Position numbers and translations under genes: made by a program | Assembly (NCBI GenBank): GCA_032718475.1 | Contig: JAUCBJ010007214.1 | Span: 1 to 64,000, forward strand | DNA from: Nemertoderma westbladi | Taxonomy: Eukaryota > Animalia > Xenacoelomorpha | Length of the DNA: 64,000 nucleotides | Reading direction: 5' to 3' | Shown here: piece after piece, positions 20,545 to 54,765 of the stretch | Numbering within the stretch: position 1 is the first letter of the stretch | How the letters are laid out: each line of letters begins with the position of its first letter | The notes under the pieces: generated by a model | What the model saw: the letters and a program-made list of their open reading frames with translations, nothing else | The model's database searches: none | Told to the model about the DNA's origin: nothing

Positions 20545-21633
20545 TTAGTTGGCCTCTTGTTTATAAATCGACTTTAGCCTATATCAATTACTTAGTGTAC
20601 TGAAGTTACATCAGCCGAAGCCAGTCTGTGCGCGACCTTTCACCCACGGTTTTGGGAGACTGGATTCGGATTCCTTGAGAGTTATTGCAGTGTAGACCTA
20701 CTGTATTATTCGATTGATATTTACGATATAATCTCTGACAATATATTTACTTTCGGGGAAATATTAACAGTTCCTTTAGGACGTGGCGCTTTAAGTATAA
20801 AAACAGAGTTATGACTTATACTAATCACAACTAGATGGCCACTAAGTTTCGTAATTAGGTTTAGGAGATGCTTTATTAACCTTCACACTACTTCACACTG
20901 CTTCACACTACTTCACACTACTTCGCACTGATCTGCCGACCCTCACTGAATTTGATCATATATAAGGTGGATCGCAACTGACACATGTAGGGATTATGAA
21001 ATAGCATTTAATTCACACAAAACCAATATTATGTAAGTTGCAGTTGCTACCGGTAAACCTGTTCCTCTTACCTCAGTAATCAATAAGATTGGGGGGTTTA
21101 TGATTATTTATCAGTATTCTCCAAATATAACAGCAATATCCATTAATATAACAACAATTAATAACAGAAGTAAAATAATGCGGTGAACAGTCAGTATGTG
21201 TTACTTATGCAGGTAAAAACCGTAATGTTCAGTAGAATGACAAGTAAGTAATAATCCAGGTAGGTGAGTTAAGTTAATAGATTTACGTTCTTATAATCAG
21301 GGCCATCTGATGTTTCCTAGGCCAAAGTCTGAAACTTCTACACCGAAGCACAGAATATTCCGAGCCGGTTCTGATGCTCAGAAAAAAGTAAACAAAGACT
21401 GTAATGCATTGCGCGAGTTTCCATAGGCCTCTGTTAGACATAAAGGGAAAATCGCTCTGATTGGCTGAATAGGCAGAACAAAGAGGTTCCACGTCCACAA
21501 GAAATCAGCTGACAGATTTCGTCATCTGGGCTCTAATTCCTTCCCGTCACGCAGTTGGATAAATTTAGGGCTATTTTAGAGTATTCTGCGCATTGCGGAA
21601 AAATTACTTGTTATGTCCGCAAAAGCTTTTACA
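20545..21633 (-). repeat. 5' LTR of element A (last ~40 bp of U5 and PBS region deleted)
   Basis: Matches 1505-2593; the sequence matching 1464-1504 is absent, and the leader resumes at the equivalent of C ~45474. Confidence 0.92.
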
Positions 21634-22015: not shown

Positions 22016-23214
22016 TGTAAAAGCTTTTGCGGACATAACAAGTCATTTTTCCCAGCAATGCGCAGTGTAGGTGCTTTAGCAGACATAATCAGTCATTTTT
22101 GCCGCAATGCGCATAATACTCTAAAAGATTGGAGCTCAGATGACGAAATCTGTCAGCTGGTTTCCTGTAAACGTGGAACTTTTCTTTGTTCTGCCTAATC
22201 AGCCAATCAGAGCGATTTTCACTTTATTTCTGATAGAGGCCTATGGAAAACCACGCAATGCATTATGGTCTTTGTTTACCTTTCTGAGCCTAAGAACTGG
22301 CTTGGAATTCTTCTGTGCTTCTGTTTTGGAAGTTTCAGACTTTGGCCTAAACATCTGATGGCTTTGATTACAAGAACGTAAATCTATTATCTGCATATAC
22401 TGGAGCACTATTTCCTGAAACTCATGGAACATTACTGAACAACTTGCCTCCTCAACTATTTCCTGGCTGCATTTACCTGACGAACTGATTAAACTCAATG
22501 CATTACGTAACACATACTGACTGTTCATCGCATTATTTTACTTCTGTTATTAATTGTTATTGTATTGATGTATATTGCTGATATATTTGGAGAATACCGA
22601 TGAATAATCATAAAACCCCCAATCTTCTTGATTACTGAAGGTGAGAGGAACAGGTTACCGGTAGCAACTGCGACTTACATTATAGTGGTTTTGTGTGAAT
22701 TAAATGCTATTTCATAATCTCTACAAGTGTCAGTTGCAATCTTCCTTATATATGATCAAATTCAGTGACGGTCGGCAGATCAGTGTGCAGTAGTGTGAAG
22801 TAGTGTGAAGTCGTGTGAAGTAGTGTAACAGATAATAAATCATCTCCTAAAGAATGCGCTATTTACGAAACTCAGTAGCCATCTAGTTGTGATTAGTATA
22901 AGTTATAACTCTATTTTTATACTTAAAGCGCCATGTCCTAAAGGAACTGTTAATATTTCCCCGAAAGTAAATATATTTGTCAGGGATTATATAGTAACGA
23001 TCAATCAAATAATACAGTAGGTCTACACCGCAATAACTTTCAAAGCACCCGAATCCAGTCTCCCTTAACTGTGGGTGAATGATCGCGCACAGACTGGCTT
23101 CGGCGGATGTAACTTCAGTACATTAAATAAACGATATAGGCTAAAGTCGATTTATAAACAAGAGGACAACTAAAATTGGCAGGTTAAACTGCTAAAGGTC
23201 TAAAAGCGCAAACA
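22016..23214 (+). repeat. 5' LTR of element C
   Basis: Reverse-complement homolog of the A LTRs, with a ~50-bp tandem duplication near its start that is shared with the 3' LTR. Confidence 0.93.
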
Positions 23215-23225
23215 ATAATAGATTT
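23215..23225 (+). promoter_or_regulatory. Non-tRNA primer-binding site of C (ATAATAGATTT), complementary to LTR 22380-22390
   Basis: Directly follows the LTR CA; no TGG; perfect 11-nt complement AAATCTATTAT inside the LTR. Function inferred. Confidence 0.65.
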
Positions 23226-23329
23226 TGTTCTTTATTGCACAGTAGGCAATAAATATAGTTGTCTATTGTTCTGGTAAGAACATTAATAGTTTTAAACTCT
23301 TGATTGCACAGTAGGCAATGAATATTTTG

Positions 23330-23890
23330 TGTGACGGGATCTAAGAAGGATCCCGGTTTATCCGCGGTTATTGTATTTACGCGTCCCCACCGTGTGTGTG
23401 TGTGAAAAGAGTCTGGGAATTCTGACGTTATTGATCCTCCGATATGTATAATGCGATAGATAGTATAAAATGGATATAGTATAAAATGGTTGAAACCCAA
23501 ATGATGTAATACAGTAGTGTACAGGTAAATGGTGGTAGGCGAGGACGGTAATAGAAGTCACCGCTCTACCCTAGCTAACCGACTAACATAAATGAGATAA
23601 CTGAACCGAATACTGATACCTAATAATATATATTGCACGGTTTGGCCGTTGTTACAGTACCTAGCCGGTGCCTTCCTCCCATTGGCTAATATCCCTGTTG
23701 GCACCCTTTGGAGTGTTTCCCCTCACTCCTGCTATTCTCTCTCGGTCAGGGGTATGGCCCCTGACCCCTATTGTGTGTTTCTCCTTCCCACTCTGTTGGG
23801 GTGGCACGAGGTTGGGTAATTAAGCTCGTGCTCCCAATATTGCTTAACGGCTTACTTTGTGGGGTGTTAGCGGAATTGAATAAGCTAACA
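23330..23890 (-). repeat. 3' LTR of element B
   Basis: Near-identical to 44701-45259. Confidence 0.96.
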
Positions 23891-23899
23891 CTCCCCCCC
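23891..23899 (-). promoter_or_regulatory. Polypurine tract of B (GGGGGGGAG)
   Basis: Immediately precedes the 3' LTR on the minus strand. Confidence 0.9.
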
Positions 23900-24616
23900 A
23901 TGCTATCTTCCCGGTGAGAAGACTTTAGACTTTAGGCATCCACCTAAAGTGCGCTCAATTCCGCTGGATCCCGATCTATTATCAGGTGTGGGGTGGAACT
24001 ATTTTTTCAGAGCCGGTTTTCCAGACCGCCCCCTATGGGTATGATATCGCTACCCGGTTCGCCTGGCGTCCCATGTCGGGCCGATCGTACGCTCCTCTCA
24101 CACGACTTTTGTTTCCCCAACACTTTCGCCACTTTAACTCCACTCTGTTCTCACCCTGACTCTCCTCTACTTCTCCTCACTTCAGCTCTAACTCTCGGAC
24201 TTCCCTGTCCCTCACTCAGCCTCTTATTCCTCCCACACACTTGAATTGCATTCGCACTCTCTCCGCACTCCACACTATCACCTTTACTCGAACCCTCTTT
24301 GACTACCTTATTCCCTCTGACGAGTCTCACCCCCCCCCCCCCCCCCCCCTCCTGTGCCGTCGCACTCAAGAAGTGTGAAATCGTCTGGTGTCTCGTCCAT
24401 AGTACCATAGTCAGTTAGCCCCACAGTCCCAGTAGCTAATTGAGAAAGGTTGTATGACTATAGTACTTACTTCGAACGTATATTTCATTACTAAACTACT
24501 GATTGCTACGTACGTACATACAAATTGCACTTATTTGATTATTTAGATTACTTAAATTTGTACTTAATAGTTCGCACGTCCCATGTGGCGCCTTCCAGGC
24601 GTACCACATCGAAGCC

Positions 24617-25915
24617 TCAGTTTATCCCTCCTGACTTCGGGAACCACCTCAAGTCTTTCCCTCTGCCGTCCTCTTCCCTGGGTCGTTTCCTGGTCACTAC
24701 CGCTCCTCTGGGATCCGCTTTCTGTCCTCGGACCCTCGCCGCCACCTCCTTACTGATCCCGGTTGTCGGCTCCTTGGGCGCTGCTGTTATCAGTGCCCGG
24801 TAACGCTCTGCGGGTGGCCCCTCCGAATGGCCTTGCTGTCTCCCCCTGGTGGCGTCCCATAAGATCATCTTCATCGCCCGCGGCACATGCTCCGCCAAGA
24901 AATCCCTAAACTCCCCTCGGTTCTGTGGCGTCCACCTGTCCAAATACCTTTGCGTATTTATCACCCCGGCATACAACGCCGCCGTTGCTACCTCTTGATA
25001 GGTAAACGGTAACCTCCGCTTTATGATCTCCAAGTGGGCCTCCTGATTGATAAGGAACAAACCCCACTTGAACTCATGGGCCTTCATGCGTTGCCGCGTC
25101 ATGGCCCCAACGTCGGCCCACTCCTCGAAGGTTCTGAACTTCTCTTCATCGTCCATCCAGTCGCACTGGCATCCGTAGTGTCCCCGAAAGTTACACTTCG
25201 AGCATCGGTTATGCAACTGTGGACATGCTCCCATCCTGTGGCTCGTCTCGTGGCAGTAGAGACATCTGGTCCCTCTCTGGAACCAGAACTGGCCTGTGTT
25301 CTCCACTACTCCCAACTCGTCCGGTGCTGTCATAGCCATGAAGACCACCTGCATGTCCAGAAGGTTGGGGGTGTCCGGACCGATGATTCTCTCCGTGTCT
25401 TCGCGAATCGCCGATCCCACCTTCGTCGTCGACTTCTCTCTTACCAGGACTTGCACCGCTTTCGGCAACCGGTTTAATTTCGGCCCGTCCTTGTTCCCAT
25501 ACGTTCCTAGGTCGAATAAGAAAATGTCTCCATTTGGTGCGGCCAAATGTAGGAGTATGGTCCTGGCCGACCCCGCTGATCCTCGTCTCGAACCCTCCTC
25601 ATCTTCCACGGTTCCCTCGTCGTCTAGGATCATATATCCTCCCCTGTTGATGGACTCTATGAACCTCTTCCAATCTTTCTTCGGCGACTCCCTCGCGTAC
25701 TTCGGAATCCCGAACTTCGCCTCGTCCCCTTTCACCACGTAGTGGAAATGTTGGAAGATCGCATTGTCCAGCGACGGCATCCCGTAGGTCCCGACCAGCC
25801 GCTGTTCGTGCATCTCCCTGAAGTGGTCCTGCAGCGCTCGTGCCGCGTGACCCTTTTCCAACCGCTCGTAGTTTCCTCTCATCTTCTCTTCCGGATGCCT
25901 CTTGGTGAAATCCAC
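24617..25915 (-). CDS. Accessory protein of element B: DEDDy/RNase D-WRN-like exonuclease (ExoI, ExoII) + two CCHC knuckles
   Basis: MILDDEG, LLHLAAPNGDIFLFDL, LPKAVQVLVREKSTTKVGSAIRED, LLDMQV; CLYCHETSHRMGACPQ, CSKCNFRGHYGCQC, FEEWAD. In-frame ATG at 25972 lies upstream of a single TAA. Confidence 0.82.
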   Translation of the reverse strand: MDFTKRHPEEKMRGNYERLEKGHAARALQDHFREMHEQRLVGTYGMPSLDNAIFQHFHYVVKGDEAKFGIPKYARESPKKDWKRFIESINRGGYMILDDEGTVEDEEGSRRGSAGSARTILLHLAAPNGDIFLFDLGTYGNKDGPKLNRLPKAVQVLVREKSTTKVGSAIREDTERIIGPDTPNLLDMQVVFMAMTAPDELGVVENTGQFWFQRGTRCLYCHETSHRMGACPQLHNRCSKCNFRGHYGCQCDWMDDEEKFRTFEEWADVGAMTRQRMKAHEFKWGLFLINQEAHLEIIKRRLPFTYQEVATAALYAGVINTQRYLDRWTPQNRGEFRDFLAEHVPRAMKMILWDATRGRQQGHSEGPPAERYRALITAAPKEPTTGISKEVAARVRGQKADPRGAVVTRKRPREEDGRGKDLRWFPKSGGIN

Positions 25916-26377
25916 CAGTATCTCCTTTCCTCCTTATTCCGCCTTTCTCTTTCTGATCAGTTTTCCCGCCATTCTGAACACTCTCACTCGCTCACCTGTA
26001 AGGTGGTGCCTTACCAAGGCGCAATACAGATGAGTGATAAGTTTATGATGGTCTGTACAGTTTGAGAATGGCCCATTTCTACTTAGCTCTGAGTTATAGC
26101 CTAAATTTTCTTACTACTGTTACCATGATTTGTTCTCTTTTAGCCCTATTCTTATTTAATTTTAATTTAATTTTAATTTAATCCTACTGCTTACTGTTTA
26201 TGGATTATTCTATTTCATAATCCACATTCTGACCTACTCTGTGGGCCTGTGCAGTACAGCAGTATATGTCGTGTGGCCTACACGATTTATCCAACTGTAC
26301 TCATATGCCCCCCTCTCGCTACTAACTGCTAACTAATATCCATATTATACATATCCCTTCTACCCCTATTACTAATC

Positions 26378-27054
26378 GGTACTACGTACCCTCCTACTAA
26401 CCTCTAACTAACTAGCGGTACTACGTACCCTCTAACTCTTACTCTCTCTAACTAACTAACTAGCGGTACTACGTACCCTCTAACTCTTACTCTCTCTCTC
26501 TCTAACTAGCGGTACTACGTACCCTCTAACTACTCTAACTCTACTAACTAATGGTACTACGTACCCTCTAACTCTTACTCTCTCTCTCTCTAACTAGCGG
26601 TACTATGTACCCTCTAACTACTCTAACTCCACTAACTAGCGGTACTACGTACCCTCTAACTCTTACTCTCTCTCTCTCTAACTAGCGGTACTACGTACCC
26701 TCTAACTACTCTAACTCCACTAATGGTACTACGTACCCTCTTACTACTCTCTAACTAACGGTACTACGTACCCTCTAACTACTCCACTAACTAACGGTAC
26801 TACGTACCCTCTTACCACTCTTACTCCACTAACTAACGGTACTACGTACCCTCTTACTACTCTGACTCTACTAACCACCGGTACTACGTACCCTCTTACT
26901 ACTTCTCTAACACCTCTAACTAACTAACTCCTATCTCTCGGTACTACGTACCTCCTAACTAACTAACTGACTAACTAACTCTCACTCTCGGTACTACGTA
27001 CCTCCTAACTAACTAACTAGCTAACTAACTCTCACTCTCGGTACTACGTACCTC
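26378..27054. repeat. Minisatellite: 16 copies of the hairpin motif GGTACTACGTACC with variable CTAA/CTCT-rich spacers
   Basis: Counted by eye; one copy reads GGTACTATGTACC. Confidence 0.92.
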
Positions 27055-36022
<8,968 letters not shown>

Positions 36023-36123
36023 TTTTTTTATTTTTATTTTATGTGTGGGAAGGGCTTCTCGCCCTCAATCCCACCCCCCTCAGTCCAAAACTTGGACGAC
36101 TAAACACCTCTCTAACAACCAAT

Positions 36124-39100
36124 CTAAGGTGCCCCTTCTAATAGACAGCATTTCCCTACAGCTCTCCTGTAGGTTTTTCTGTCCTTCGCACCTATCCTGC
36201 CACCTATCCGCACTTCTACCGATCGGACTCTTCCGTCCTCATCGGAGTAAGTGCCTACAACTCTCACCAACCGCCACTGGTTGTTGATGATAGTATCATC
36301 CGTAACGATTACGAGATCTCCTTCTCTTAACTCCCTATTCGACTTCCTCCACTTGCTTCTTTTGTGAAGCGTGGGTAGGTATTCCTCAACCCACCTCCTC
36401 CAATACTCTGCGCTTATTGCTTTAGCGACTTTCCAACTCTGGCGGGAGTGTATGTCATCTGGGTCTACACCCCGCATATCGATGGTCGCTGGCCTTTCCA
36501 TTAGAAAATGGCTGGGTGTCAGCACATCTAATGACTCAGGGTCATCATTCTCCGGATATAGCAGTCTGCTATTAATGCACTTCGCAAGTACTGTTCTCAA
36601 GACGTCCTCCGTGACCATGTGGGTGTTCATTAACTTCGTCATGAGACGCTTCGAACTGCCCACCAGTCTCTCGACGCATCCTAGTGTATGTGGTGCATAC
36701 GGCGTCCTTCTCTCCCACTTTACCTGTCGTCGTCTCATGGCTGCCCTGACTTCCTCCCCTTCCAAGATGTCCAAGGCCTCTGCCATCTCGTTCTCTGCTC
36801 CCACAAAGTTGGTTCCGCTGTCGGAGTACATTACTGCGATCGTCCCACCTTTGTGGTCTCTGAGCCCTTCTAATGCATTAATGAATGCTGATGCGGTTGC
36901 ATCTTGGGCGAGTTCTATCCCTACCGCCCGCGTGTTGTTGCATACGAAGATAATACCGTAGCGTTTCTCCGTGTGCCGCATCACCTTGATCTTTATCGGC
37001 CCGAACATGTCCACACCACAATGCGTAAATGGCGGGTCGTGCTGTCTTACCCTACTCGCTGGTAGTGGTGCCATCTCCTGTATGGTTCGCTCCTTCTTCG
37101 CTCGTCGGCAGGTCTGGCACTGCCCCACTACCGCTTTTACCTTCTTCCTCAACTGCTTGACCCAAAAGGTCCTCCGTATCTCCGTAAGGGTTCGGTTGGT
37201 GCCCCCGTGCAATATCGACTTGTGGGAGTCCCAGATAATCTGGTGGATTATTGGCGATCCTGTGGGAATGATGATGGGTTTCGGTGGTATGACTATGCTG
37301 TTGTTGTATCCCACCCTGGAGTTCATTACTAGAATCCCGTCGTCATTAAGTTGTGGTGACAGCGTGATCAGCTCGCTGTCCCGTCGGATATGCTGTTGTT
37401 TACCGACGCATTCCACCTCGTCGCCATAGCTCTTCCGTTGTTCATAGCGGATTACTGCTTTGGCCGCTCCTTCCAGATCTGTTGTTGTCCTGATCTTCTT
37501 GCATTTGCCAACTCCCGCGAGGAAATTCCCGAAGGCTCTCCAGTACGCCACTAATTTCTTGGTATTATACCAACTAGAGCTGTAGCTGAGGAGTTTATCC
37601 GTCGGGTTATCGCACAGTTCTACTGGTTTAGGTTGCACGTCCCTTATCTCCCTCACCATCTGGGAGTATATCTCTTCTCCCTTTGAATCTCCCTCTTCTC
37701 CCTCTGATACTGCTTCTCCCGAGCCCGGGTCCACCTTTCTCATCGGCGGCCAGGCCTCCTTGTCGCTCAGAAACTGTGGCCCATGTTGCCACAATTCTTC
37801 CTTTTTTAAGAAAGAGTGACGTGCCACGCCCCTCGATAACAAGTCCGCTGGATTCTCGTCCGTAGGGCAGTAGTGCCACCTTCCTAACTCTGTGGTCGCC
37901 CTTATTTCGTCCACTCTATTTGCGACGAATATAGGGTATCTCATCCTCTCATTGTGTAACCAGCCAAGCACTACCATGGAATCCGTCCAGTAGTGTGTCT
38001 CCACTATGTTGGGAATAGCGTCCATTATGTAGGCTGTGGCCCTAACTCCTAGGCTCGCTGCTGTTAACTCTAGTTTGGGAACCGATGCCGAATCTGGTGG
38101 CGTTGACTTCGCCTTGCTGAAGGCAAGTCTGGGCTTATGAGGCCCCTCTTGTTGTACTAAATAGAGTGCCGCTCCGTATGCCTCTAGTGACGCATCGGAG
38201 AACATGTGCAGATCCAGGTTCGTCATGTCCCCATCCGGGAAATACACTCGCGGCATGCTGTATGTTCCCATCTTCTCCAAGCCTTCTGTCCACTTACAGC
38301 ACTGTTTCTTGATCTCTTCTGGTACCTCTATGTCCCACTCATCCTTCAGTTTGTATACTCTCTTGAGTATCTGTTTCCCCGTGACTAATAGTGGGGATGC
38401 TAGGCCTAGGGGATCGTATATTCTCGCTATGTATGATACATAGCCTCTCTTTGTGTGGATGTCTGCGCCCTCCTGGCTCAGCTGGTACTTCAGTTCATCT
38501 GTCTCTCTGTTCCGCACGATTCACAGTGCCTTCTGTTGAGACTCTGTCCTCTTATTCGCCATGTCCTGCCCTTTTGCTGTTGTGGGATTATCCATGGTCG
38601 ATTCTGGTCTCTCATCCTCCATCGCCTTGATAAATTCCTCCGAATTGGATTGGAATTTGGTCAGGTTAAAGCCGGATCCTTTTAGGATGTCACGAACCTC
38701 GCGCCCTGTGTCCAGTATCTCCTTAACCGTGTTCCCAGAATCCATTCCGTCGTCTACGTAGAAGCCGCGTCAAATCATATCGACGGCCCTAGTGCTGTAT
38801 TTATCCTCCTTTCCCTTCACTGTATCTCTTACTGCCATAGTCGTCGTAAATGAAGACGACTTGGCTCCCATGTTCTGTACTATCATCTTGTACGTCGGTA
38901 CAATCGACGGTTCTTCATCGCCGTTGTACCATAAGAAGCGTTGGCTATCGCTATCTTCTTCCGTTATACGGACTTGGTTGAACATGCCCTCTATATCACA
39001 GGTGAAGGCGTGTTTCCCATTCCTGAATCTAAGTAGGACCTCGATCCCCGAGTTGTAGATATTGGGACCCTCCCGCAGATAGTCGTTTAGGCATTTTCCG

Positions 39101-40272
39101 TTAGTCTTGGCCGATGCGTCAACTACCATCCGCAGTTTACCTTTCTTCGGATCTAAAGCCACGTGGAGTGGCAGGTAATATGTCCTGTCCGTATTTGGTT
39201 CGTCGACCGGCAACTCCACGGCCCATCCTTTCTCGACGTACTTCTTAATCGTTCTGTGGATGTACTCATTCTTCTTGGGGCTCCGTTTTAGTGTCTGCTT
39301 CAGCTTGCGGAGCCTCGTGAGTACCATCCCTCTATTATCGGGCAGTGGTAGCTTCGGTAGCTTCCATACCATTCCTATGGTGTACCGCCCCTCGTCGCAT
39401 TTCATAGACTCCTCTACGCTCTGTTGAGCCTGTTTGTCTTCCACCGAGGTCCCGACCCCGGTCTCCTTTAATCCTTCAAAATCCTGTCTGAGCAGTCTTT
39501 TAAGCTGCTCCTCTGCTCTCTCATCACTCATTTCCTGCATAGTTCCCGCGAACATGCATCCTGATGTCTCCGACATCCTAAATGGTATCTTGCTCTTGAT
39601 TGGGCCGCTCAGCGTCCACCCGAATGGTGTTAGTATTGCCACCTGGTCACACTGTCTGTCTTCGCCGAAGACCGTTTGCATTCTTTCGTGGGCTGTCGGG
39701 CAGTCCATTCCTACTATGATGGATACCTTCCTAACGTCCACCTCTGGGATTGAGAAGTCGATATCATCCAGAAATTTGTATTGTTCGACCTCGATGTTGG
39801 TTGGCCGTCTGGCATTGATGTTTATTGATTCTATCACTTGGATGTGGTCGATGGTCGCCCCGTAGTCACATCCTGGTGCCACCGCTGCAATTGCGCACCG
39901 TCCGGTTCTCATCTCCAGGATCTCATCTTTGCTAGAGATGGTTGTTACCGCCATTCTACTCGGCCTCGTTCTCAATCCTATCTCTTCGGCCACCCAATCC
40001 TCGATTAATGTGAAGGCAGCTCCACTATCAACCAGCATCAGTGTGGTTACTGATCGATTGCCTTCTCCAATCACTCGCACCGGTAGTACCCCAAGTAGCA
40101 CTGTTCCTCTCTTCTTCGCCCCTACTGTGCTCATTGCCATTGTTTGGCCTTTCCTTTGACCGAACTTGACTGGCGTCTCCTTGCATTGCCTAGCTCTATG
40201 TCCACTCATCACACATCGCGAGCAGATCTCATTTCTCGCCGCATATTCTACCTGATCTTCTCTGGGTAGCAC
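36124..40272 (-). pseudogene. pol: pol of element B (protease, RT, RNase H, integrase), with in-frame stops
   Basis: LVDSGA; YYLPLH, RMVVDAS, DIEGMFNQV; YVDD at ~38749-38760 just past a stop; HMFSDAS, PKLELTAA, WTDS, NPADLLSRG; H..LHGG..CQTC, GVDMFGP, SDSGTNF, VERLV. Confidence 0.95.
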
Positions 40273-40355
40273 TTGCTATCCTATAGTTTGGCATTAACCG
40301 TTCTAGCAGTTGTTCCTACTATTGTTATTTTAGACAAGGCGTGCTTCGAGGGACA

Positions 40356-43300
40356 CTATCCTCTTTTCTTTGCCCCTACGGTGCTCGTTGCCATCGTCTG
40401 CCCTTTGCCCTGACCGAACTTAATTGGCGTTTCTTCGCATTGGTCGGCTCTGTGTCCACCCATCACACATCGAGAACAAATTTCATATCTCCTCGCGTAT
40501 TCTACCTGATCTTCCCTGGGTAGCGCTCGCCAGTACCTGCAGTTCATGGTTTGATGAAGCGCATTTGTATGTAGCTGGCATTTGCTCTTTGGGTTGTAGC
40601 CGTCCTTATACAGTGCATTGCGTATCGCAGCTGCGTTTGTACCAAAGTCCCTACTATTCTTATTGTTTGGGTTCGGCCTACTGGACGTACTGGGGTTATA
40701 TTTATTTGTGTTGTTATTGTTCCCCTGTCCGTTCCATGGTGTGGTCTTACCTTCGGCTACCTGTGGACTTGCAGTCCCCTGCGTCGCTGCGTATGGCAAT
40801 GAGTGCCTGAGCTTTGGTAATGCGTTTGACGTGTTGTGCTCTGGCCTCGGTCTATGGTAATCCGTCTTCGGTCCCTTTCCCAGGCTATCTTCGCTATAGA
40901 CTGGGTCGGTTATTAGTTCAGCTTCGTAGTTTAAGAAACTTGACATTTCCTCCAGACCCGGTTCCGCACCCTTCCTATCTCGAGTGGAGAAAGCGATTTT
41001 CCTCCACTTGTTGCGCAGCCAGATCGGTAGTGCCTGCGCTATCGTGGTGATGTTGTTGGACGCGTTGAGCTCGTATGGCGCGTCTAGCGTCTTTAGTACG
41101 ATTAGCGCCTTTTCGACTTTGTTAGCGAACGTCTTAATGCTAACGGGGTTATCCTGCAGGCCACCCGAAGTTATGCCTCTCAGGGTTTGCCTGATGATCT
41201 TGGCCGGGTGCCCGTATTCCCTGTCCAGTGCCCGCCATGCCGTCGTGAAGCCGCCCTCTATGCCCTGGTATTGCCTCACGATGTCGTATGCTGGGCCTCC
41301 TGTGTATACTTGCAGATATTTTAGGCACTCCGCCTGCGTCAAGTTCTTTGTTAGTATTTCGTTACTATACATACGCCGAAACTGGAGATACTCCTCCGGC
41401 CTACTCCCATCGAATTTGAATGGTTCCATGGGTGGTAACTCGATCCTCGTTTTTAACGCATCGATCAACGTGGCCATCCCCATCGCCTGCGCTTCCAATG
41501 GGTTCGATGGATGTTGTATAGTTTCTCCCGCTGGGTGTGTTCCGTCCGTCCTGCTTTCTGCCTTCCTTTGGCTTGGGTATATCATTGGGGGTAGCGGCCC
41601 CCTCCATATTTCTGTGTCGCATGATCTATTTTCATCCAACGGTCTCGTTGATCTTGCTCCTATCGGGGTATATTGTTGATATTGTGATGGGGGAATGTCA
41701 CCCTGCCCCCCCCCCCACCGGTATGTTTGGTACTGGGGTTGATGTTAATATATTGGGGCCCATCCACCTATCCGCAATAAATCCCCCCTCCCCTGGGTAT
41801 ATGTTATGTCCTTGCATGCTGTAGTCATACTGCTGTACTGGTACCGGTATAGGCCTATCATCTTCTGGCCTACCTGCCGGTATGTACTCTGTGACTTCCG
41901 GGTTTAATCCCGTCGACCGCGCTATCCTATCGCCTACACGATTCCTGTCAGCATGGCCTATGGTATGTGCAGTAAGGCCTACAGTATGTCCTACAGTCTG
42001 TATGTGTCGCTCGGGATCGAAGTTTATTCTTCTCGAATAATCCTCCCCGCGGCTACCGTATTCTCGATCGGTAGGTATATCCCGTCGGAAAGTTTCTCTT
42101 CGACCCCCTCTACTGCTCTCGTCTTCGTACCGGTACATCGTGTACCCCTCTCTCGACGCGTGATGCGCCTCGTCAGGTCGCGTCTCTCCAGGACGACGGC
42201 AATCTCCCGAAGTTCGACCCCACCAACACTCTCTTTCCATCTCGACTACCAACGGCTCGCTATCCGTCCTCGCTCTCCTGTCGTTCGCGGCGATACTTCT
42301 CCTGCTGTCTTCTCTTCTTCTCCTTTCAGTGCAGTATTCCGGCTCGTGAGATCTCTCGTCGACCTCCCGGTTAAACCCCACTGTTCTTCTTCCCTCTTCT
42401 GATCGGGCTCGACGCTTCGTCCGCCCTCTCGTGACGTCAATCTGCCTCTCTCTGCTCGATCGCACGCTGCTGGGGATACTCGCAATCCCCCTATCACTCT
42501 CCGTCGCCGGGAGTTGCGGTTTACCTATTTCGGCCCGCGCATTATCCACCGACGCCTGTGGGACACTCTCTGCCCCCCCCTCTCGCCACTAACTTCTCGC
42601 TGTGGGGCTCTTGTAGCCCCCCCCCCCCCCCCCCCCGCTCGCCACATATCACACCACTACCTCTTACTTCTCTTCTACACCCCTCTCCAGTCAACACAAT
42701 GTTTCTACTGCGGCTGGGTTCGCTTACCCCTGCCTCTCTCCCCACTACTACTTGGCCTATCGGGCCTACTCCGGGTTGGCTCAACCCCGCCACCCCCTGC
42801 CTACTAACTACGTGGCCTACCAGGCCGCCGTTGGCTCGACTCAACCCCGCCACCTCCTGCCTACTAACTACATGGCCTACCAGGCCGCTGTCGGGTCGAC
42901 TCAGCCCCGCCACTTCCTGCCTACTAACTACATGGCCTACCTGGCCGCCACCTGTCGGGTTATACACTTCCGACGCGTTCACGTTAATAGCACCTATATT
43001 AGAAACGGAATTATTTTGTTCGTTTGAAATAAAATCATTTGAATTATTTTGCGCGACTACACTATTTGAATTATTTTGTAAATTCGGGTTTGGATCATTA
43101 TTTAAATTATTTGAGTTATTATTATTTTCTAAATTTAAATTACTATTCGGGTTATTTTGCACGTTTAAATTGAAATTATTATTTAGGTTATTTGTATTTA
43201 AATTTAAATTACTACTACTAGGTAAAGTATTTCCTGCAATAAAAGCTTGGTTAGGATCATCCAATACGGTACTATTAATATTAACGTCGTCTGCTGTAGT

Positions 43301-44399
43301 ATTATTATTACCCCCCCCCCCCCCCACCCGTACGGTCACACCAGTTACGGGTCTGTCGTGCGGTCCCTGTAAGTGGGGTATTAATAAATGTATCCACGGC
43401 CCTTGGCTCCTCGAAAATCTTCGAGTCAGCCTCGCCCTCTGACACCCCCACCCGCGCCAGTTCCAGTTCGCGCGTGCGCCTAATTTTGCACTATACAAGC
43501 TCGCTTAGGTGTTTTTCCAACTCTTTTCGCTCACGCTCGTCTCTTGCCATTCTCTCCCGACCCTCCCGTGCGTTCTGGTCGGCCAATTCCGCCTCTCTCC
43601 TAGCTCCCTCCCTTCGTCTCGCCTCACGCTCTTTGCGTTTACTTTCCTCCCTCGCCTCACGCTCCCTACGTTCACTCTGCTCTCTCGCCTCATACTCTTC
43701 TTGTTCCTTCCTCCCTATTTCCTCACACTCCCTAAGGCTTTTCGCGGCCCTTTCGGCCCTCTCTCCGGTTTCTCTAATCAGTTCCATTTCCCTCTCTAGT
43801 AGCATTCTCCTCTCCTCTAACCGTCTCTCTACTTCTCTCTGACTTTGCGCTATCAGATCGAGATGGTACGTCGCATTTATCTCTCTCACCCGTCTTTCTT
43901 TTACGGAGGATGTAGCAGACTTATCGGTTGCGACAGATTCCTTCCGCCTTCCTGACCTACTAACTTTCCCCCTCCTCCCAGAACTTCCTCCGACCAACGA
44001 GACCGAATCCTCGGGGTTAACCTCGGATTCGCCCTCGTCAGGTCTCCTCCAACCCACTAATTGTATAACCTGGGCATCGACTAAGTATGGCCCTATGTAC
44101 ACTGCACTAGGTTGCATACCCCCACACCGCCATAAATCACACAGTTCCTCGGCAACCCCTCTCGCTCTCTCTTTGGCCAGTTCTCTCTGCCCGAAGCGCA
44201 TTAGATAACTAAAATGTCTATCCGACTCACCTAGTCCTGTTGTCAACTTTACCTCATCTATCTTCGCCCCCTCCTTGGCCTCCTTAAGTAGCTTCCGGGT
44301 CGCGTTGTAGGCCCGTCGAAGTCGATCAGAAACCCCGACGTCCTCGTCGCCGACCTCTCCTCCGTCTCTCCGGGTCCGACGTCGTACCGGCGGCCCCAC
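40356..44399 (-). pseudogene. gag: gag of element B, frameshifted (coiled coil, Asn-rich region, capsid region, knuckles)
   Basis: ORFs 43491-44399, 42542-43498, 41698-42549 and 40356-41639 (ELPPMEPFKFDGS...YLQVYTGGPA; CQLH..H..C; CSRCVMGGH..C). Confidence 0.88.
42725..42960 (-). repeat. 60-bp tandem repeat (~4 units) encoding GHVVSRQEVAGLSRP-like 20-mers
   Basis: TCAACCCCGCCAC.CCTGCCTACTAACTAC.TGGCCTACC repeats at 60-bp period. Confidence 0.9.
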
Positions 44400-44689
44400 C
44401 GTCGCCGTTCCGGTGGGCTGTCGGCCTGTGGCTGGCCGGCGACATTGGTACGTCGACCAATGTGTGTCGACTCGTCTCTTTCTCCTTCCATCTCGCTCTC
44501 TCCTTCTCTCAACTCGACTTCCGGCTCCAGACGGCCCCCCTCATCTTGAACTGCCGGATGACCCGTTACTGATGGGTCCGGCGTCGTAGGCCTATACCGT
44601 CTGGGCACGAATCGTTAGTTCTTCGTCCGGGGTCCGCGTTGGCGTAGCGTCACTCATCTCTCGCTTTAGGTCGGTTGCTGACAGAGTCT

Positions 44690-44700
44690 ACTTCTATTAC
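44690..44700 (-). promoter_or_regulatory. Non-tRNA primer-binding site of B (GTAATAGAAGT), complementary to LTR 44917-44927
   Basis: Directly follows the LTR CA on the minus strand; no TGG; perfect 11-nt complement inside the LTR. Function inferred. Confidence 0.68.
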
Positions 44701-45259
44701 TGTGACGGGATCTAAGAAGGATCCCGGTTTATCCGCGGTTATTGTATTTACGCGTCCCCGCCATGTGTGTGTGAAAAGAGTCTGGGAATTCTGACGTTAT
44801 TGATCCTCCGATATGTATAATGCGATAGATAGTATAAAATGGATATAGTATAAAATGGTTGAAACCCAAATGATGTAATACAGTAGTGTACAGGTAAATG
44901 GTGGTAGGCGAGGATGGTAATAGAAGTCTCCGCTCTACCCTAGCTAACCGACTAACATAAATGAGATAACTGAACTGAATACTGATACCTAATAATATAT
45001 ATTGCACGGTTTGGCCATTGTTACAGTACCTAGCCGGTGCCTTCCTCCCATTGGCTAATATCCCTGTTGGCGCCCTTTGGAGTGTTTCCCCTCACTCCTG
45101 CTATTTTCTCTCGGTCAGGGGTATGGCCCCTGACCCCTATAATGTGTTTCTCCTTCCCACTCTGTTGGGGTGGCACGAGGTTGGGTAATTAACCTCGTGC
45201 TCCCAATATTGCTTAACGGATTACTTTGTGGGGTGTTAGCGGAATTGAATAAGCTAACA
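44701..45259 (-). repeat. 5' LTR of element B
   Basis: TATA-like ATATATATTA (~44993-45002) with a TCAGTT initiator-like motif ~25 nt downstream (44973-44978) on the minus strand. Confidence 0.96.
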
Positions 45260-47427
45260 TTTTGTCTATTGTTCTGGTAAGAACAATAATAGATTTTAGT
45301 TTCTTTATTGCACCGTAGGCAATAAAATCGAATGTACCGGTCGGACGGTGAACTGTAGGCCTAACTACCCGAACCGGTACTTACAGGTATCAGTATTATT
45401 TCGATTGTGAAATATTGTATATTGTAGGCTGTTAGGGGATAAGGGATTGATCACCCCTTATTCCTTTGTATGGTTTACTTATTTCTGTCAGTTTTATTTA
45501 TCTGTAAGTGTAATATTGAGCAGAAGGCGTGTAAGCCTGCTCAGATTGTACAAATAATTTGTAGGCCGGATTGTTGTCTAGCTGTTGTTAGGTCTGAAGC
45601 GATTGCAGTATGTGTGGAGTGTCTGTCCGATAAAGTACTAGTTAGGAAGGTGGGGGCATCCAGTGTTGTAAGGTAAATCCCCCCCGAAAGAATAAGTCGT
45701 ACTACTCGGTTAGAACGCCTACTAACTAACCATTTCGGAGTCTGCATATACTGTAGTTTATTTAGGCTTGACAGTAGTCTGCCAGCATTTGGTCTGTGTT
45801 TTGTTTGTATAGTCTGCACGGGTAGTGCAATATTTATTAGTCAGAGTCTATGCGAGTATTCGCAACCACCAACTCCCCAAGTTTATTCCTACAGTAATTG
45901 TGCTTGTTATACATACCGTTATAGTTGAATTAACCCCGGTACTACATCAGGGCTGCTTAGCATAGGTAAAGACTGGTGATTTTGTGCTCCGGTCACTCCA
46001 GCAGATACCGTAGTTCTTTTGACTGTTCAAGTATATTTAACTGCTGGTTATTTGTTGTATAAGTACTTGTACCTAATTTAGGGTTTAGTGTACAGTGCTT
46101 TCCGAAAGTAATTTGGTGTGTAGGCAGTATATTTGTGTTGTAAAGTGGTTAATAGGCACGTTAGCTCTGGTTGGCTGCGGTAATTAACTTCTAGGTAAGG
46201 ACACTCCGGGTACATAACGTAGTACTTATAGAGCTAAGACTATAAGTCGTCAGACGGTGGTATTTCCTTATCTGGACAACGCAATTTACTTACTACTGCT
46301 TTATTGTTTTCAAATACCGTAGATTCCTGTCAGTTTGTAAGAACCAGAAATTCTAACTCCTTGTTAGGCTGGTTTGTAGATTTCTTGTAAAATTACCCTA
46401 AAAAATTGTATGTGTAACTTTTTAGTGTTTATTTAGAGATTGTAATCTCAAACTGTAATTGTAAGTAATTTGTAGTGATAAGTAACTTAGTAAAGTAGAA
46501 TTATTCGTTTTAGTATCCAACAAGTAGCACTCCACTGAGAGCGTTCAGCTTCTGTGTAGTGACTCCTTACCCAGAAATAATAACATTTATTTCAAATATT
46601 GTCAAAAACCCATTGTACGGGTATATATATATATTATAAATCAACTCAACCGATTTATAAAATAGTAGGCCTGTTATACATCAATTAGGTCTTAATATCA
46701 GTTGGACTACTGCTTAATAACAGTAACAAGTAAAAGGGAAATAACCCTTAAAATTCAGAAATTCAGTTATTATAAAATAATTTACATTACCGGTATTTAC
46801 GGTAGGCTTATTATATATATTTATATGAATTTAGGCTGAAATTATATACCAGTATTCTGTGACTAAACCTAGTCTGTAATAATACTTATATATATACTAT
46901 AAGTGTATACCGGTATTTTAATATATTATATATATATCACATTACACTGAGTAACGGTATCGGTAATTAATCACTAGGCTTACAGTTGATACTGAATTAC
47001 TAGACTTACTTTAACTGTCGTTATAGTAGTAGGCATTCAACTGTAATATAAATCATGGCTGACACAAAACAAACACTGTCAGATAGTCTCCTAGGAAGAA
47101 CAGTCTGTGACTCAGATAGGAGTATAGAAAATCTGAGTCCAAGTCCCCTCCTACTGTAAGAAAGGTCATCCCTACAGTAGTAGTATCAGACCCTAGGCTA
47201 GTAAAGCACCATAGGTCTATCATAGGCACTAGGGCTCAAGTCAAGCGGGACCAAGAGGCAGCTGTTAAACAGCAGCAGCACCCTAACCGGGAACTTATTT
47301 CTCAGCGGCCCGATAACTCCAGTAGTTCAGACACTGTAGAGTTGACACCCGAAATCGGAGCAAGGATGGCAGAAGCAGTTTATCCGGATCCACTTCTAAT
47401 TCTTCTGGGGCCGTACTCACTAGAGTA

Positions 47428-49137
47428 TTGATCGCTGTGGAAGAACATCAAATCGATTGGGCGAGAAGTAAGCGATCGACCAGGGACAGTTATGCGGGAT
47501 ACACGATGGAGGAACTGAAGTCTATTGTCGAGACGCAATGGAACTTCCCCAGACCCGGACTCCCGTTTAACTTATCAGAAGCTGCCTGGGAGGACTTATA
47601 CAGGATGGGAGTAGTAAAGGACACTCGAGATCTAGCTGTGTGGAAGAGGTTGGTAGCAGGATATGTCCAGGGATTCTTCAGCTCTTTGGAGCGATTAGAG
47701 GAACACCTGTTTCAACAACATCAAGGGCCTCAAGAGCAGGGAGAGCTGCTTTATCAAGTGCGAGAACGAATTTTACGGATCAGACTAATCCTTTCGGCCT
47801 TTGAGGAAGCCTCGAAGAGAAGCCAAGACACGTCGTTGCAAGTGACTGTAAAGACTTGGTTCCAACGGGTGAGTCTTAAAGTCCAGGGAACGACACAATG
47901 GAAAGCTCAGCTAACCGAGCGCATGACCCACGGAGAATCAACAGATGCTACCTTTTTTCAGGTGGAAGGCGAAGTTACATCCGAGAAACCTCAGAAGAAG
48001 GATGCTATTGACATCTATCTGTCGGACTATCAACGATTTATAGGTGACAAAGAGTTAAGGAGACGGCTAGCTGGACTTCACCCTAATAGTGAGGGAGCCA
48101 AATTTGTGTTGGACTCGTTAGATGCGGAAATATTAGCCGCGGAGCAGGCTAAATTTGATGAAAGTGTCCTCATGGCAATGGATCAAGAAGAACAATTAAA
48201 GAAACGGCAAATAGAAGACCGAAGGTCAGCGGCAGCGGCAGAATCTGAGAGGAAGGCGTCAGCTGCAGAGGCTGAAAGAAAAGCGGCAGCAGCAGCAGCA
48301 GCAGCAGAATCTGAGAGGAAGGCATTAGCTGCAGAGGCTGAAAGAAAGGCGGCAGTGGCAGAAGCAGAACTGAAGGCGTCTGAAGCGACTACCCAACTAG
48401 AACTGGAGAACCTTCAGGCGAAACAAGATTACTTGAAGAAACAGAGAACAGCTACTCAGATACAGCTGCTAAGTCGATCTACTCCCAGGAGACAGGGATT
48501 TACATCCTCTGATGAAGGCGATACAACAAATCCTGAAGGTAGAGGAAATAAATCTCGTTCAAGAGGACGTAGAAGAGCGCCACACCGTCAGAAGTTACCT
48601 AATTTACCTCCGCGGTGAGAAGGCAACTGGCTAGTGTAGACTTAGGTAATCCTGAACCCACAGACCAAATTATTAGAGTAGAAAGACTCCATACTATAGT
48701 AGATGAGCCTGAAATAATTAGGCCTGTTCTCAAAGCAACTCCCTCTGTGATAGAGACACCTGTACTTCCAAAACCTAACTCTAAATTCCCTTTGCACAGT
48801 ACTAAACTACCTGTGCCCAGTTGAACAGCCCCTGAATCACTCCCGGTCCTGGACGCCGAGCAAGACATAAACGATTTGTCGCCCGTCGTCCTTACTCGTC
48901 AACCCGCTACTATGTTGGCGGCTCCCGCTTCGGCGGTGGATTGGGTAGACGAGGGACGGCGGGGGATGAATCTCCTGCTCAGGCAGCTGGAAGACCATAA
49001 TCAAAGGTCTTTTCAGCAGGTCTGAGAATTGGAAGGGACTGTTCAGCAGTTAAAGGGAACAGTAAGAGAGAGTAGGTTAGAGTTGCAAGAAGTGCAGCAG
49101 AGTATTGCTTTAGAGCGAGATAAATTAGTAATTATGA
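47428..49137 (+). pseudogene. gag: First, partial gag copy in element C
   Basis: ORFs 47428-48618 and 48615-48824 are homologous to the Gag N-terminus of A. Confidence 0.9.
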
Positions 49138-49147
49138 TAAATTAGTG

Positions 49148-52100
49148 AGGAAGCCTCAAAGAGAAACCAAGTACCGTAAAGACTTGGTTCCAACAGGTGA
49201 GTCTTAAAGTCCAGGGAACGACACAATGGAAAGTTCAGCTAACTGAGCGCATGACCCACGGAGAATCAACAGACGCTACCTTTTCTCAGGTGGAAGGCGA
49301 AGCTACATCCGAGAAACCTCAGAAGAAGGATGCTATTGACATCTATCTGTCGGACTATCAACGATTTATAGGTGACAAAGAGCTAAGGAGAAGGCTAGCT
49401 GGACTTCACCCCAATAGTGAGGGAGCCAAATTTGTGTTGGACTCTTTAGATGCGGAAATATTAGCTGCGGAGCAGGCTAAATTTGATGAAAGCATCCTCA
49501 TCGTAATGGACCAAGAAGAAAAAATAAAGAAAAGGCAAATAGAAGACCGAAAGTTAGCAGTGGAGGCGGCAGCGGCAGCGGCAGCGGCAGCGGCAGCGGA
49601 AGAAGCTGAAAGAAAGGCGGCAGTAGCAGAGGCCGAAAGAAAGGCGGTAGCGGCAGCGGCAGTAGCAGAAGCAGAACGGAGAGCATCTGAAGCGACAGAC
49701 CAACTCGAGCTAGAGAACCTTCAGGCGAAACAAGATTACTTAACTAAACAAAGAGCTGCTACTCAGATGCAACTACTGAGTCGATCAACTCCCAGAAGAC
49801 AGGTATTTACCTCTTCCGATGAGGGTGATACAACGGATCCCAAGGGTGGAGGTAATAAATCTCATTCAAGCGGACGTAGAAGAACGCCACACCGGCAGAA
49901 GTTACCTAATTTACCTCCTGCGGTGAGAAGGCAACTAGCTAATGTAGATGTAAGTAATCAGGAGCCTATAGACCGAATTATTAGAGTAGACAGACTCCCT
50001 ACTATAGTAGATGAGCCTGAAATAATTAGGCCTGTCATTGAAGCCACTCCGGTGATAGAGACCCCTGTACTTCCCGAACCTAATTCTAAATTCCCTTTGC
50101 ACAGTACTAAACTACCTGTGCCCAGTAGACAAGCCCCTGAACCACATCCAGTCCTGGACGCCGAGCAAGACATAAATGACTTGTCTCCCATCGTCCCTAT
50201 GCGTCACCCCACTACCATGTTGGCGGCTCCCGCTTCAGCGGTGGAGTGGGTGGACGAGGGACAACGGGGGATGAATCGGCTGTTCGGGCAGCTGGAAGAC
50301 CATAATCAAAGGTCTTTTCAGCAGGTCTGAGAATTGGAAGGGACTGTTCAGCAGTTAAAGGGAACAGTAAGAGAGAGTAGGTTAGAGTTGCAAGAAGTGC
50401 AGCAGAGTATTGCTTTAGAGCGAGATAAATTAGTAAATATACAAATGGGTATACCACCACCCTGTAACAATGTGTCAACCTGTTAGGTCTGAAGTATTTC
50501 ATGCGCAAGGTGTAGAGCCTACACGCATCTATACTGCTAGTGAAGTAGAAACTCCTATAGTAAACCCTATTAAGGGTAATTATTATAAACCTGTTGATAA
50601 TGATATTCCATATAGACCTGATCATAATCCGAGAAATTTATATACTGATAACTCGATATTAAATAATACGATGGCCCAAGAAAGTCTTACGCGTCAAATG
50701 GCTAGAACCGAAGCCCGTCAAGAGGTAAAGCTGGGAGAGGTCGTCAAGTTCAATGGAGATGAGATGAAATGGTTACCTTTTAATGAATATTATAAAGATA
50801 ACATACAGAACTCTGTACTATCTAACGGAGAGAAACTTAGATTCCTCATCGACTGCTTGGAAGGACCTCCCAAGTTAATGGCGTTAAAGTTTATTGGACA
50901 TCCAGATGGATTAAGACAAGTTTGGGATACACTAAACATCAGGTATGGTAATAGGACTAACATAGCTAGGTATTTGTATGTAAAATTAATGGCGCCCCGA
51001 AAGTTTCTTAGCAGGGGGATTATAGAGTTTTCCGACGAGATTCAGGAGATCTGTAGACAGTTAGACTGGTTGGGTAAGTCTCATGAATCCCAGAATTCTA
51101 TGGTTGTAGGAGCCTTAGCATCAACTTTGCCAAAGGGTGGAGTAGGTACTCGCTGGGACAAAGGTAACACCAGTGTGTTGTACAGACGATGGCGAAAGCC
51201 AAACCTCATACGAGGAAAACAGCGGTAAAGACACCGAAAGATCTTATTATGTCAATAAAACTAGGAAAGACGTAAGTAAATCTAAGTCTCGAAGCAGTGA
51301 CACGAGAGAACAGGTAACAACTCCTCCTACGTCTCCTAAGAGATTTCATGGAAGAAAGCCCGAGGAAAGAACCAGTATGCACCACACAGCACAGGTTAAA
51401 GTAAGTAACATCAAGCCCAAATGTGTATTGTGCGACGGGCCACATCGCTTGAGTGGGTGTGATGAATTCTTGAAGAAATCACTGAAGGATAGACATGATG
51501 TCATGTGGGATAAGCAGTTGTGTTATAATTGCCTCAGACGAGGACACCAATGGTGGACCTGTTACTCAGATGCTAGGTGTGCTAAGTGCGGCGCGAAGCA
51601 TCATATCTTGCTGCACACAGAATTTGACGGAACCCGCACGAGTCAGGTAGTGAGCCCGAACTACATGTCCAATTCGGTGATATGAACGACACTGACCACA
51701 GCTCTGAGATGGAAGGATTCTACACGGACGAATTCTCCGACGAAAACGAATCCTGTTATATGATAAACACCGCAGTGTATCGAGCAATTACGTATGAGAC
51801 TGAAACGAGAGAAGAAGATCCTCAACTGACTAATCCGGACCAGCAACCATCTTGGAAAGTGCCGACTTCCAACGTCGGAATCCGGGAATTCCCTGTGGTG
51901 CAGCTGAGAGTCCACGGACTAGAGAAAAGTTTGATAGTAAACGCCCTCCTTGACTCCGGCAGCACAGGTACATTCATCGACAAAGAACTAGCCGAAGACT
52001 TCTTTGCTGGACAACCCAAGTTCCAAACTAAGTTGAACCTTTCAGGAATTATGCAGGTTTGGAAATCCACACTAGCTACCGATTACTATGTGGGTGCGTT

Positions 52101-52449
52101 GTCCACTCCCCAGGATGAACTAGGAGAACATAGCATAATGTCAGTAAAAATGGTGGCGATAAAGAACTTTGCTAACAGCCAAGTGGAACCTTACAACTGT
52201 GATGAAGACCATTTTACCCAGCAGCATGATATCCCTAGATTCAACACCAACTACCCAGGGGTGCAGATATTAATCGGCCAAAATGCGCACAAGGCGCTTG
52301 AGACATTAGAAAAACGGCCTGCTCGACCGCAACCATTACAAGCGTACGCGGGAAGAACGAGAGTAGGTTGGTACTTCACTGGACCTTCCCATAGAACACT
52401 AATGGAAAGACTCCCTCGTGAAAGGATACATCAGGTGAGTGAATGGTAA
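49148..52449 (+). pseudogene. gag: Second gag copy + protease in element C
   Basis: ORFs 49197-50330, 50470-51228, 51173-51685 (knuckles) and 51682-52449 (LLDSGS). Confidence 0.92.
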
Positions 52450-52737
52450 GAAGAAATCAGTGAGGGAGAAACCACAACTGAGGGAACACCATACTCCTCA
52501 GATAATGACGATATTAACCAATTATACGATGAGGAAAATACAATTGACCTCCTCACCGAAAATGAAACTTGGTTAAACCAAGTAAATCTGTGCCATCTCA
52601 TCAATCATGGCGGACAATTCAACTACAACGACGAATTGAACGAAGTGGTAGAGTGATACAACAATAAAATTCGCGATGAACACGCCGTATGATTCTTTAC
52701 TCAAGAAGCCGTAGAGCCTAATTCCTACGACAAGGCC

Positions 52738-54369: not shown

Positions 54370-54765
54370 TTAGGTGGACCCGACTTCCTAAGTAAAGAAG
54401 AGGATGAATGGCCTCCTCATCTCACCACAGCTGAGATTAGACAAGCCAAGGGAGTGGAGAAAGTCAAACCTAAAACCCGGACGAGTAAATCAAAGTTATT
54501 TAAACCCGTGATAGATCTGTCTGTACTACACATTTCCAGGGACAATGCTGTGGATCTAAACCCCCCCCCCCCCCCACAACGAACAAATCTGTTATAGACA
54601 TCAGAGAAAGAGACTGGAAATCTGGAACACCAGACATCTCGCAGGGACTCTCACCTCTCCTGCAGAGAGCGATAAATCATTATAGCTCCTGGAATCGGCT
54701 TTGTAAGGCTGTCGTGTATCTGAAAAGATGCTTCCACCATCACTATTCCAGGACAAAGATTGCTA

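Follow-up and report, generated by a model that had tools for sequence, protein, structure and literature searches.

How do BEL/Pao retroelements without a tRNA-type primer-binding site (PBS) start reverse transcription, and does an exonuclease-like gene carried by the same elements take part? Both questions are raised by a 64,000-nucleotide stretch of Nemertoderma westbladi DNA (assembly GCA_032718475.1, contig JAUCBJ010007214.1, positions 1 to 64,000; hereafter the window). The window is eukaryotic repeat DNA and holds three BEL/Pao copies, which belong to two families, A (copies A1 and A2) and B (one copy). A sequence-only reading had proposed that RNA derived from the long terminal repeat (LTR) of these elements anneals to the PBS and is trimmed into a primer by the encoded exonuclease. 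Our analysis points to a different answer: A and B likely self-prime via an 11-base PBS complementary to their own LTR, whereas the exonuclease-like open reading frame (ORF) is probably a separate RNA-binding accessory, dispensable for priming.

Primer-binding sites and their complements in the LTRs

Like that of Tf1, the PBS of A2 and B is located directly after the LTR and is complementary to 11 LTR bases (Table 1). The complement of the B PBS corresponds to LTR nucleotides (nt) 333–343 and is exact (11/11) in both B LTRs; that of the A2 PBS corresponds to LTR nt 365–375 and is also exact (11/11). In both families, the pairing begins at the first base past the LTR and ends sharply on the 3' side. 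Neither site is complementary to the 3' end of a host tRNA, the usual arrangement in BEL/Pao, as no TGG follows the LTR in A2 or B. ARAGORN detected no tRNA gene in the window.

The two PBSs have a 7-base core in common and differ at 3/11 positions, and each LTR carries the matching changes. The claim of the sequence-only reading that the PBS is complementary to the LTR in both families thus holds. Within family A, the 11-mers of both A1 LTRs match at 10/11 positions and have A, not T, as their last base. Part of the family should accordingly carry T at PBS base 1; the PBS of A1 itself is deleted. T at position 23215 was read in 33, 33 and 27 assembled contigs of three public runs (at most 2 samples), at ∼30% of the depth.

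Comparable matches were rare in the controls. Only 6/5000 Markov-shuffled B LTRs yielded one, and internal 11-mers with an LTR counterpart numbered 24/82,600 for B and 41/82,600 for A. The shuffle control of A, for which the LTR end was placed 3 bases beyond its true position, gave 13/5000 and is good to an order of magnitude only. Chance would therefore produce such a match in about 0.1% or less of cases per family.

The 11-mers of A and B are similarly spaced from the LTR start (365 and 333), and downstream of them both LTRs share TTTACCTG and CGCATTAT in the same order. Because of this similar distance and shared motif order, the sequences suggest that the 11-mer is homologously placed in the two LTRs. 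Right after the A 11-mer, ∼120 nt (22391-22510) are swapped for unrelated sequence between subfamilies; the subfamily joints fall at 22389-22393, with the identity drop directly past the 11-mer. On the opposite strand of 22391-22510, donor- and acceptor-like words stand at the segment borders. The A leader consists of three ∼67-nt units, each headed by a PBS-like stretch and with a tail resembling the LTR end. It contains a second perfect copy of the A PBS at 45286-45296, and a local hairpin of the leader could compete with the LTR-PBS helix.

The exonuclease-like ORF and its relatives

In both A and B, pol is followed by an extra ORF encoding an EXD2/Nibbler-like DEDDy-fold domain plus CCHC zinc knuckles. 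The ORF is damaged in every copy of the window. The B ORF meets an early stop at 25934-25936; further on, around 25290, an in-frame deletion joins the ExoII region to the second knuckle, so that ExoIII, the linker and the first knuckle are gone. Two contig pieces cease to match the B ORF near 25290, a hint that other B copies are whole. The A1 ORF is interrupted by a frameshift near 4630 and a stop at 4323-4325; most of the A2 ORF is deleted (gap between 59652 and 59840). Neither surviving ORF presents ExoI D-x-E, ExoII D and ExoIII Y-x3-D in a single frame: B has no ExoIII, and in A1 the frame is broken and the last D is replaced by E. Of the encoded exonuclease with knuckles in the sequence-only reading, the DEDDy-fold domain and the CCHC ORF are present in both families, whereas a working exonuclease is not confirmed, all copies being broken. 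Upstream of the A1 ORF, 4796-6503 contains broken frames with a Cys-rich stretch, which are perhaps a long N-terminal extension of the ORF.

The exonuclease domain of the window ORFs went undetected by Pfam. The profile of the homologues' N-terminal domain detects both of them, with independent E-values of 2e-11 and 9e-9. A full-library search recovered 52 relatives, many of 620-840 residues, in which an acidic linker connects the N-terminal domain to a triple CCHC module. The family profile matches EXD2 (E 3e-11), Trypanosoma RNase D (TbRND, 9e-7), Egalitarian (1.6e-4) and also WRN. The AlphaFold model of one homologue, P0002, has a mean predicted local distance difference test score (pLDDT) of 61, its two domains lying mostly at 70-90; in Foldseek it matched EXD2 (E 2.4e-7), Nibbler (target TM score 0.67), Egalitarian and WRN. 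The DnaQ-like fold is thus indicated by the family profile and by the model of a homologue, not of a window protein. A single-sequence AlphaFold run on the B ORF gave no usable model (pLDDT 32). Compared to EXD2, Nibbler/Mut-7, WRN-exo, Egalitarian and TbRND, the extra ORF is 12-19% identical, and any nuclease activity is putative. In the family alignment, 12/14 invariant columns lie within the knuckle module, and 8 of the 16 long homologues lack at least one ExoI acidic residue. A word-index search returned nothing for the B ORF and, for the family alignment, the seed only; scans of viral contigs and a phage collection gave no relatives of the ORF.

If the exonuclease served priming, the ORF and a self-complementary PBS should occur together in relatives, and this was the check that the sequence-only reading had itself put forward. 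Using a DNA pattern for the knuckle motif, we located at least 120 metagenome loci and 12 genome loci (at least 132 in all). Among the 120 listed metagenome loci, 80 had flanks and 40 had none and were not extendable. BEL gag or pol was found in 44 of the 132 listed loci, either upstream in the same orientation or, where a contig is circularly permuted, past the LTR; four polyproteins of the listed loci were confirmed by Pfam. Both the ORF and a readable PBS were present in 25 of the loci listed, and in all of them (25/25) the PBS is of the TGG tRNA type. The TGG stands within 3 bases of CA in 22/25, the site begins with TGGCGCC in 22/25, and the PBS is exactly TGGCGCCCAAC in 16/25, the sequence described as the tRNA-Lys2 PBS of Drosophila Gypsy (PMC1635307). 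The longest self-complement was 8 nt in the 24 relatives tested, about half of which had a partial LTR only. Co-occurrence of the ORF with a self-complementary PBS was therefore 0/25, and an exonuclease beside a tRNA PBS is the very combination that the sequence-only reading, if seen in many relatives, had named as refuting it. Since the readable ORF carriers are tRNA-type, presence of the ORF does not imply self-priming.

The PBS was unreadable in L022 and L079 and in L018, L028, L042, L047, L059, L124 and L128, which begin inside gag or pol, and these were left out; L079 belongs to a clade that could have served as a second host group. L067 was excluded from the count, having a TGG motif without a gag ORF. 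When 51 loci were screened independently for CA with at least 10 self-complementary bases behind it, three candidates (L040, L048 and L072) emerged, none of them at an LTR end before gag: one lies within a gag ORF and two are away from LTR ends.

Catalytic residues are often missing in the relatives. The DEDDy motifs of the 25 are complete in 10, lost in 10, partly visible in 4 and off-contig in 1. The dead domains form one clade in the tree, and dN/dS, the ratio of non-synonymous to synonymous substitution rates, is 0.04-0.34 in 8/8 pairs (the pairs being non-independent), which indicates purifying selection. The dead clade, with an integrase-tree support of 1.0, comprises L002, L007, L021, L031, L033, L037, L038, L060, L062, L065, L066, L068, L069 and L080; all its exonuclease domains read are without catalytic residues, and many of the ORFs are open for 870-1280 codons. 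L005 and L051 carry versions of the ORF of 1550-1590 codons.

Other loci of the pattern search differ in context. L071, L121, L122, L125, L126 and L131 were regarded as chance matches, since they lack both the exonuclease domain and BEL genes. L008, L032, L072, L103 and L048 contain an exonuclease-knuckle ORF with no BEL gene or LTR in view, and the ORF may travel in other elements too. In L123, L124, L127, L128, L130 and L132, the ORF lies in contigs of bacterial metagenome-assembled genomes, two of them with BEL pol; these contigs are likely eukaryotic contamination.

Proposed priming route and its alternatives

Taken together, the missing TGG and the self-complementarity back tRNA-independent priming by an LTR-derived RNA, as far as sequence can. 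In the route we propose, the LTR 11-mer would lie at or near the 5' end of the genomic RNA and would fold onto the PBS; the reverse transcriptase/RNase H of the element, whose RNase H motifs (DAS, E, D) are found in both A and B, would cut at the duplex edge as in Tf1 and free a 3'-OH. In folding, the LTR-PBS helix had a pairing probability of 0.8-1.0 in 18/18 folds of B and in 3/6 folds of A.

The exonuclease-assisted step found no support. The two traits are real, yet the link between them is not supported: because 25/25 readable carriers have a tRNA-type PBS, the exonuclease-like gene is probably not a priming tool, and 10 of these carriers are without catalytic residues. The reverse case is published as well, Tf1/Tf2 being described as self-priming with 11 bases through RNase H cleavage (PMC7175516, PMC5341516). 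The putative RNA-binding or anti-silencing role (Mut-7/Nibbler/EXD1-like) that the sequence-only reading had kept as its alternative fits the data better than exonuclease-assisted priming. Catalytically dead EXD-type proteins such as EXD1 and Egalitarian act in small-RNA silencing or as RNA escorts. The extra protein may bind RNA via its knuckle module and EXD-like domain, and its likeness to EXD1, Nibbler and Egalitarian makes it most likely that it would counter host small-RNA silencing or escort the element RNA, catalysis being optional.

Several observations weigh against the preferred reading. Upstream of the B 11-mer, there is a TATA-like word at 74 nt and there are initiator-like words at 46-58 nt, so that the transcript may begin ∼45 nt earlier than that of Tf1. 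The TATA/initiator/AATAAA set that stands out most in A is found 367-454 nt downstream of the 11-mer, which would put the 11-mer in U3 and at the RNA 3' end only. The A duplex, at -8.0 kcal/mol, is a weak one; it spans 824 nt and is absent from 2/6 folds. The two arms of the 23215 variant are unlinked, and LTR flanks or the second leader repeat may contribute to its reads; the PBS core bases 23219 (5-12 contigs) and 23222 (3-12) vary as well, with their LTR partners outside view. As for the ORF, A1 retains the four acidic positions and B retains ExoI and ExoII. The 25 relatives all come from one record series, their sites were found via TGG motifs upstream of gag, and the LTR end is fixed by an LTR pair in L013 and L023 only. 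Finally, the relatives are silent on the role of the ORF in A and B, because the carriers form a separate clade.

This clade was seen in FastTree trees of RNase H and integrase. The 37 ORF-bearing loci form a clade of their own (0.984), and A and B fall outside it. In trees of the loci only, A and B are sisters, with a support of 0.963 for integrase and 0.732 for RNase H, at 31% identity. BEL-type polyproteins numbered 233 at E<=1e-30; when 120 further BEL proteins were added, the support for A plus B was 0.662 with integrase, and the pair was not recovered with RNase H. Self-priming in A and B may go back to a single origin or to two.

Among the alternatives, the one that survives best, although we consider it unlikely, keeps self-priming and dispenses with both a Tf1-like fold-back and an exonuclease: the 11-mer would end a short LTR transcript, or would be released by an endonuclease from the 3' LTR copy. 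Consistent with it, promoter-like words place the start at the 11-mer in neither family, the subfamily change comes abruptly after the A 11-mer, and 5-6 bases of further pairing are possible on the primer 5' side. However, this extension is at chance level, 33/520 and 176/1160 control 16-mers being equally good, and no splice junction convincingly betters the match: the best B junction reaches 13 nt and its acceptor is missing in the other B LTR, and none was found for A2. Searches near the B LTR with ARAGORN and Rfam also gave no hit, tRNA-like or other.

Next, and also improbable, comes a structural function: the helix between LTR and PBS would act as a switch or shield, and priming would in truth be done by a host RNA that lacks a CCA end, e.g. 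a half-tRNA. The 7-base core common to both PBSs would suit such a primer, half-tRNA priming is described in copia lineages (PMC6317226), and the A leader, which repeats the PBS, holds a local partner for the LTR end/PBS. A fixed host RNA, however, leaves the tracking between LTR and PBS, at 3/11 positions and within A, unexplained.

Co-option of the exonuclease by A and B is a still weaker candidate. Here the enzyme would trim an LTR-derived RNA back to the duplex edge while the knuckles hold the substrate. This RNA would be either a short transcript or the 3' terminus of another copy of the genome. Both traits do occur in both families, acidic residues are retained where the gene survives, the A 11-mer may sit in U3, and the tRNA-primed carriers belong to a different clade; Trypanosoma RNase D, matched at E 9e-7, is described as uniting both domain types and as trimming guide RNAs (PMC7797062). 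Nevertheless, the co-occurrence of the traits carries no weight, because 25/25 carriers are tRNA-type and 10 are catalytically dead. Known self-primers manage without such a gene; Tf1 is not known to carry an exonuclease ORF. With the 11-mer in U3, hundreds of template bases would moreover have to be trimmed off, and A and B are possibly one event. It is unlikely that the deep A and B lineages dropped tRNA priming and recruited a DEDDy-knuckle protein as a fourth way of making a primer; if true, primer trimming would rest on a gene with another use in the relatives.

Chance, or an old local inverted duplication without function, is very improbable: the 11-mers are AT-rich and the readable PBS copies in the window are two, but the control frequencies given above, the equal position in A and B and the matched changes all speak against it.

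Element anatomy and known systems

Self-priming via the LTR-complementary PBS, the reading that we prefer, concerns elements of clear affiliation. A and B were assigned to BEL/Pao through Pfam Peptidase_A17, DUF1759 and DUF5641 in window ORFs, and their gag-protease-reverse transcriptase-RNase H-integrase order agrees. The pol is not of the Ty3/gypsy type of the Tf1/sushi group, as it carries BEL-specific domains. B is nested in A2 on the minus strand, 115 bases into the A2 leader. The two B LTRs (45259-44701 and 23890-23330) are identical at 547/559 aligned bases, and the 5-bp target duplications are TTTTG for B and ATAGG for A1; as is typical of BEL/Pao, purine runs precede the 3' LTR in both. 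The A2 flanks show no matching target duplication. The coding regions of all three copies are disrupted by stops, frameshifts or insertions.

Table 1. Positions of the BEL/Pao features in the window
Feature	Position	Strand
B PBS GTAATAGAAGT, adjoining the LTR, no TGG	44690..44700	-
B LTR-internal 11-mer, exact complement of the B PBS, candidate self-primer	44917..44927	-
A2 PBS ATAATAGATTT, no TGG	23215..23225	+
A2 LTR-internal 11-mer, exact complement of the A2 PBS	22380..22390	+
A 5' leader, tandem ∼67-nt units headed by PBS-like stretches, split by B	23215..23329, resumes 45260-45330	+
B 5' LTR, 559 bp, TG...CA	44701..45259	-
B gag-pol, six ORF pieces (gag DUF1759, protease, reverse transcriptase, RNase H, integrase)	36124..44540	-
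Uninterrupted (CTAA)n array, 8964 bases, between B pol and the extra ORF	27055..36018	
B extra ORF: ExoI and ExoII motifs, then CCHC knuckle module	24617..25972	-
B 3' LTR, carrying the B 11-mer at 23548-23558	23330..23890	-
A2 5' LTR, 1199 bp	22016..23214	+
A2 gag-pol pieces	47326..59124	+
A2 3' LTR, internally deleted	60334-60725	+
A1 5' LTR, 3' end and PBS deleted, 10/11 match at 21275-21284	20545..21633	-
A1 extra ORF: ExoI (by eye), ExoII and Y-x3-E ExoIII motifs, knuckles; frameshift and stop	3009..4790	-
A1 3' LTR, 10/11 match at 2234-2243	1464..2593	-

The (CTAA)n array inside B grows from a degenerate minisatellite at 26360-27055; judged from its purity, its length is possibly an assembly artefact. 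In A1 and A2, part of gag is tandemly duplicated (13409-18084 and 47140-51162). An insertion in the A1 leader (18801-19776) contains a 262-codon ORF with no Pfam match above the cut-off, which we take to resemble the C-terminal restriction-like endonuclease of a non-LTR element. The insertion in the A2 pol (54760-57570) carries an ORF with a PWWP domain (56179-56811, Pfam E 4e-10) and a 53-54-nt minisatellite.

An exonuclease domain also occurs in nematode Cer elements. Self-priming is published for Tf1/sushi, Tcn1 and TAR (PMC6317226). As described there and for Tf1/Tf2, the PBS of these elements (Tcn1 and TAR being those of plants) adjoins the LTR and can pair with 11 of its bases while matching no tRNA, like that of A and B. 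Different from Tf1, the window elements are BEL/Pao and the loop is 216 or 824 nt; the 11-mer is a candidate for the RNA 5' end. The International Committee on Taxonomy of Viruses (ICTV) describes Belpaoviridae with an 18-nt PBS for a host tRNA and with env as the sole third gene (PMC8742986). A and B resemble them in their LTRs, gag-pol order, Peptidase_A17/DUF1759/DUF5641 domains and 5-bp target duplication, and differ in the self-complementary PBS and in a third ORF for a DEDDy-knuckle protein.

A counterpart of the ORF by description is found in bdelloid rotifers, where Juno/Vesta LTR elements and Athena/Terminons carry an RNase D-like DEDDy ORF3 likened to Maelstrom/EXD1 (PMC5408684, PMC6431247). 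Like the A and B ORF, it is a DEDDy ORF after pol; the rotifer elements are not described as BEL/Pao, whereas here a triple CCHC fusion and a whole dead clade are found. An RNase D joined to a zinc-finger domain is described in Trypanosoma (PMC7797062). Term look-ups found no mention of exonuclease in PMC3118150 (supplements aside), PMC554778 and PMC13524379, and passages of PMC3601003 give no BEL self-priming. The literature search, with subscription papers, Repbase and GyDB outside its scope, turned up no paper that describes either self-priming or the extra ORF for BEL/Pao. On present evidence, we are dealing with self-complementary PBSs in BEL/Pao and a widespread exonuclease-knuckle accessory gene, both variations on known kinds, and not with a new coupled system.

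With self-complementary PBSs in animal BEL/Pao, tRNA-free priming would have one more origin, and such priming would place the elements beyond the reach of tRNA-fragment silencing. A large BEL/Pao clade, in turn, possesses an unannotated EXD-like plus zinc-knuckle gene that was kept under selection after the loss of catalysis; it is a candidate for a suppressor of small-RNA defence, or for an RNA escort, encoded by the transposon itself.

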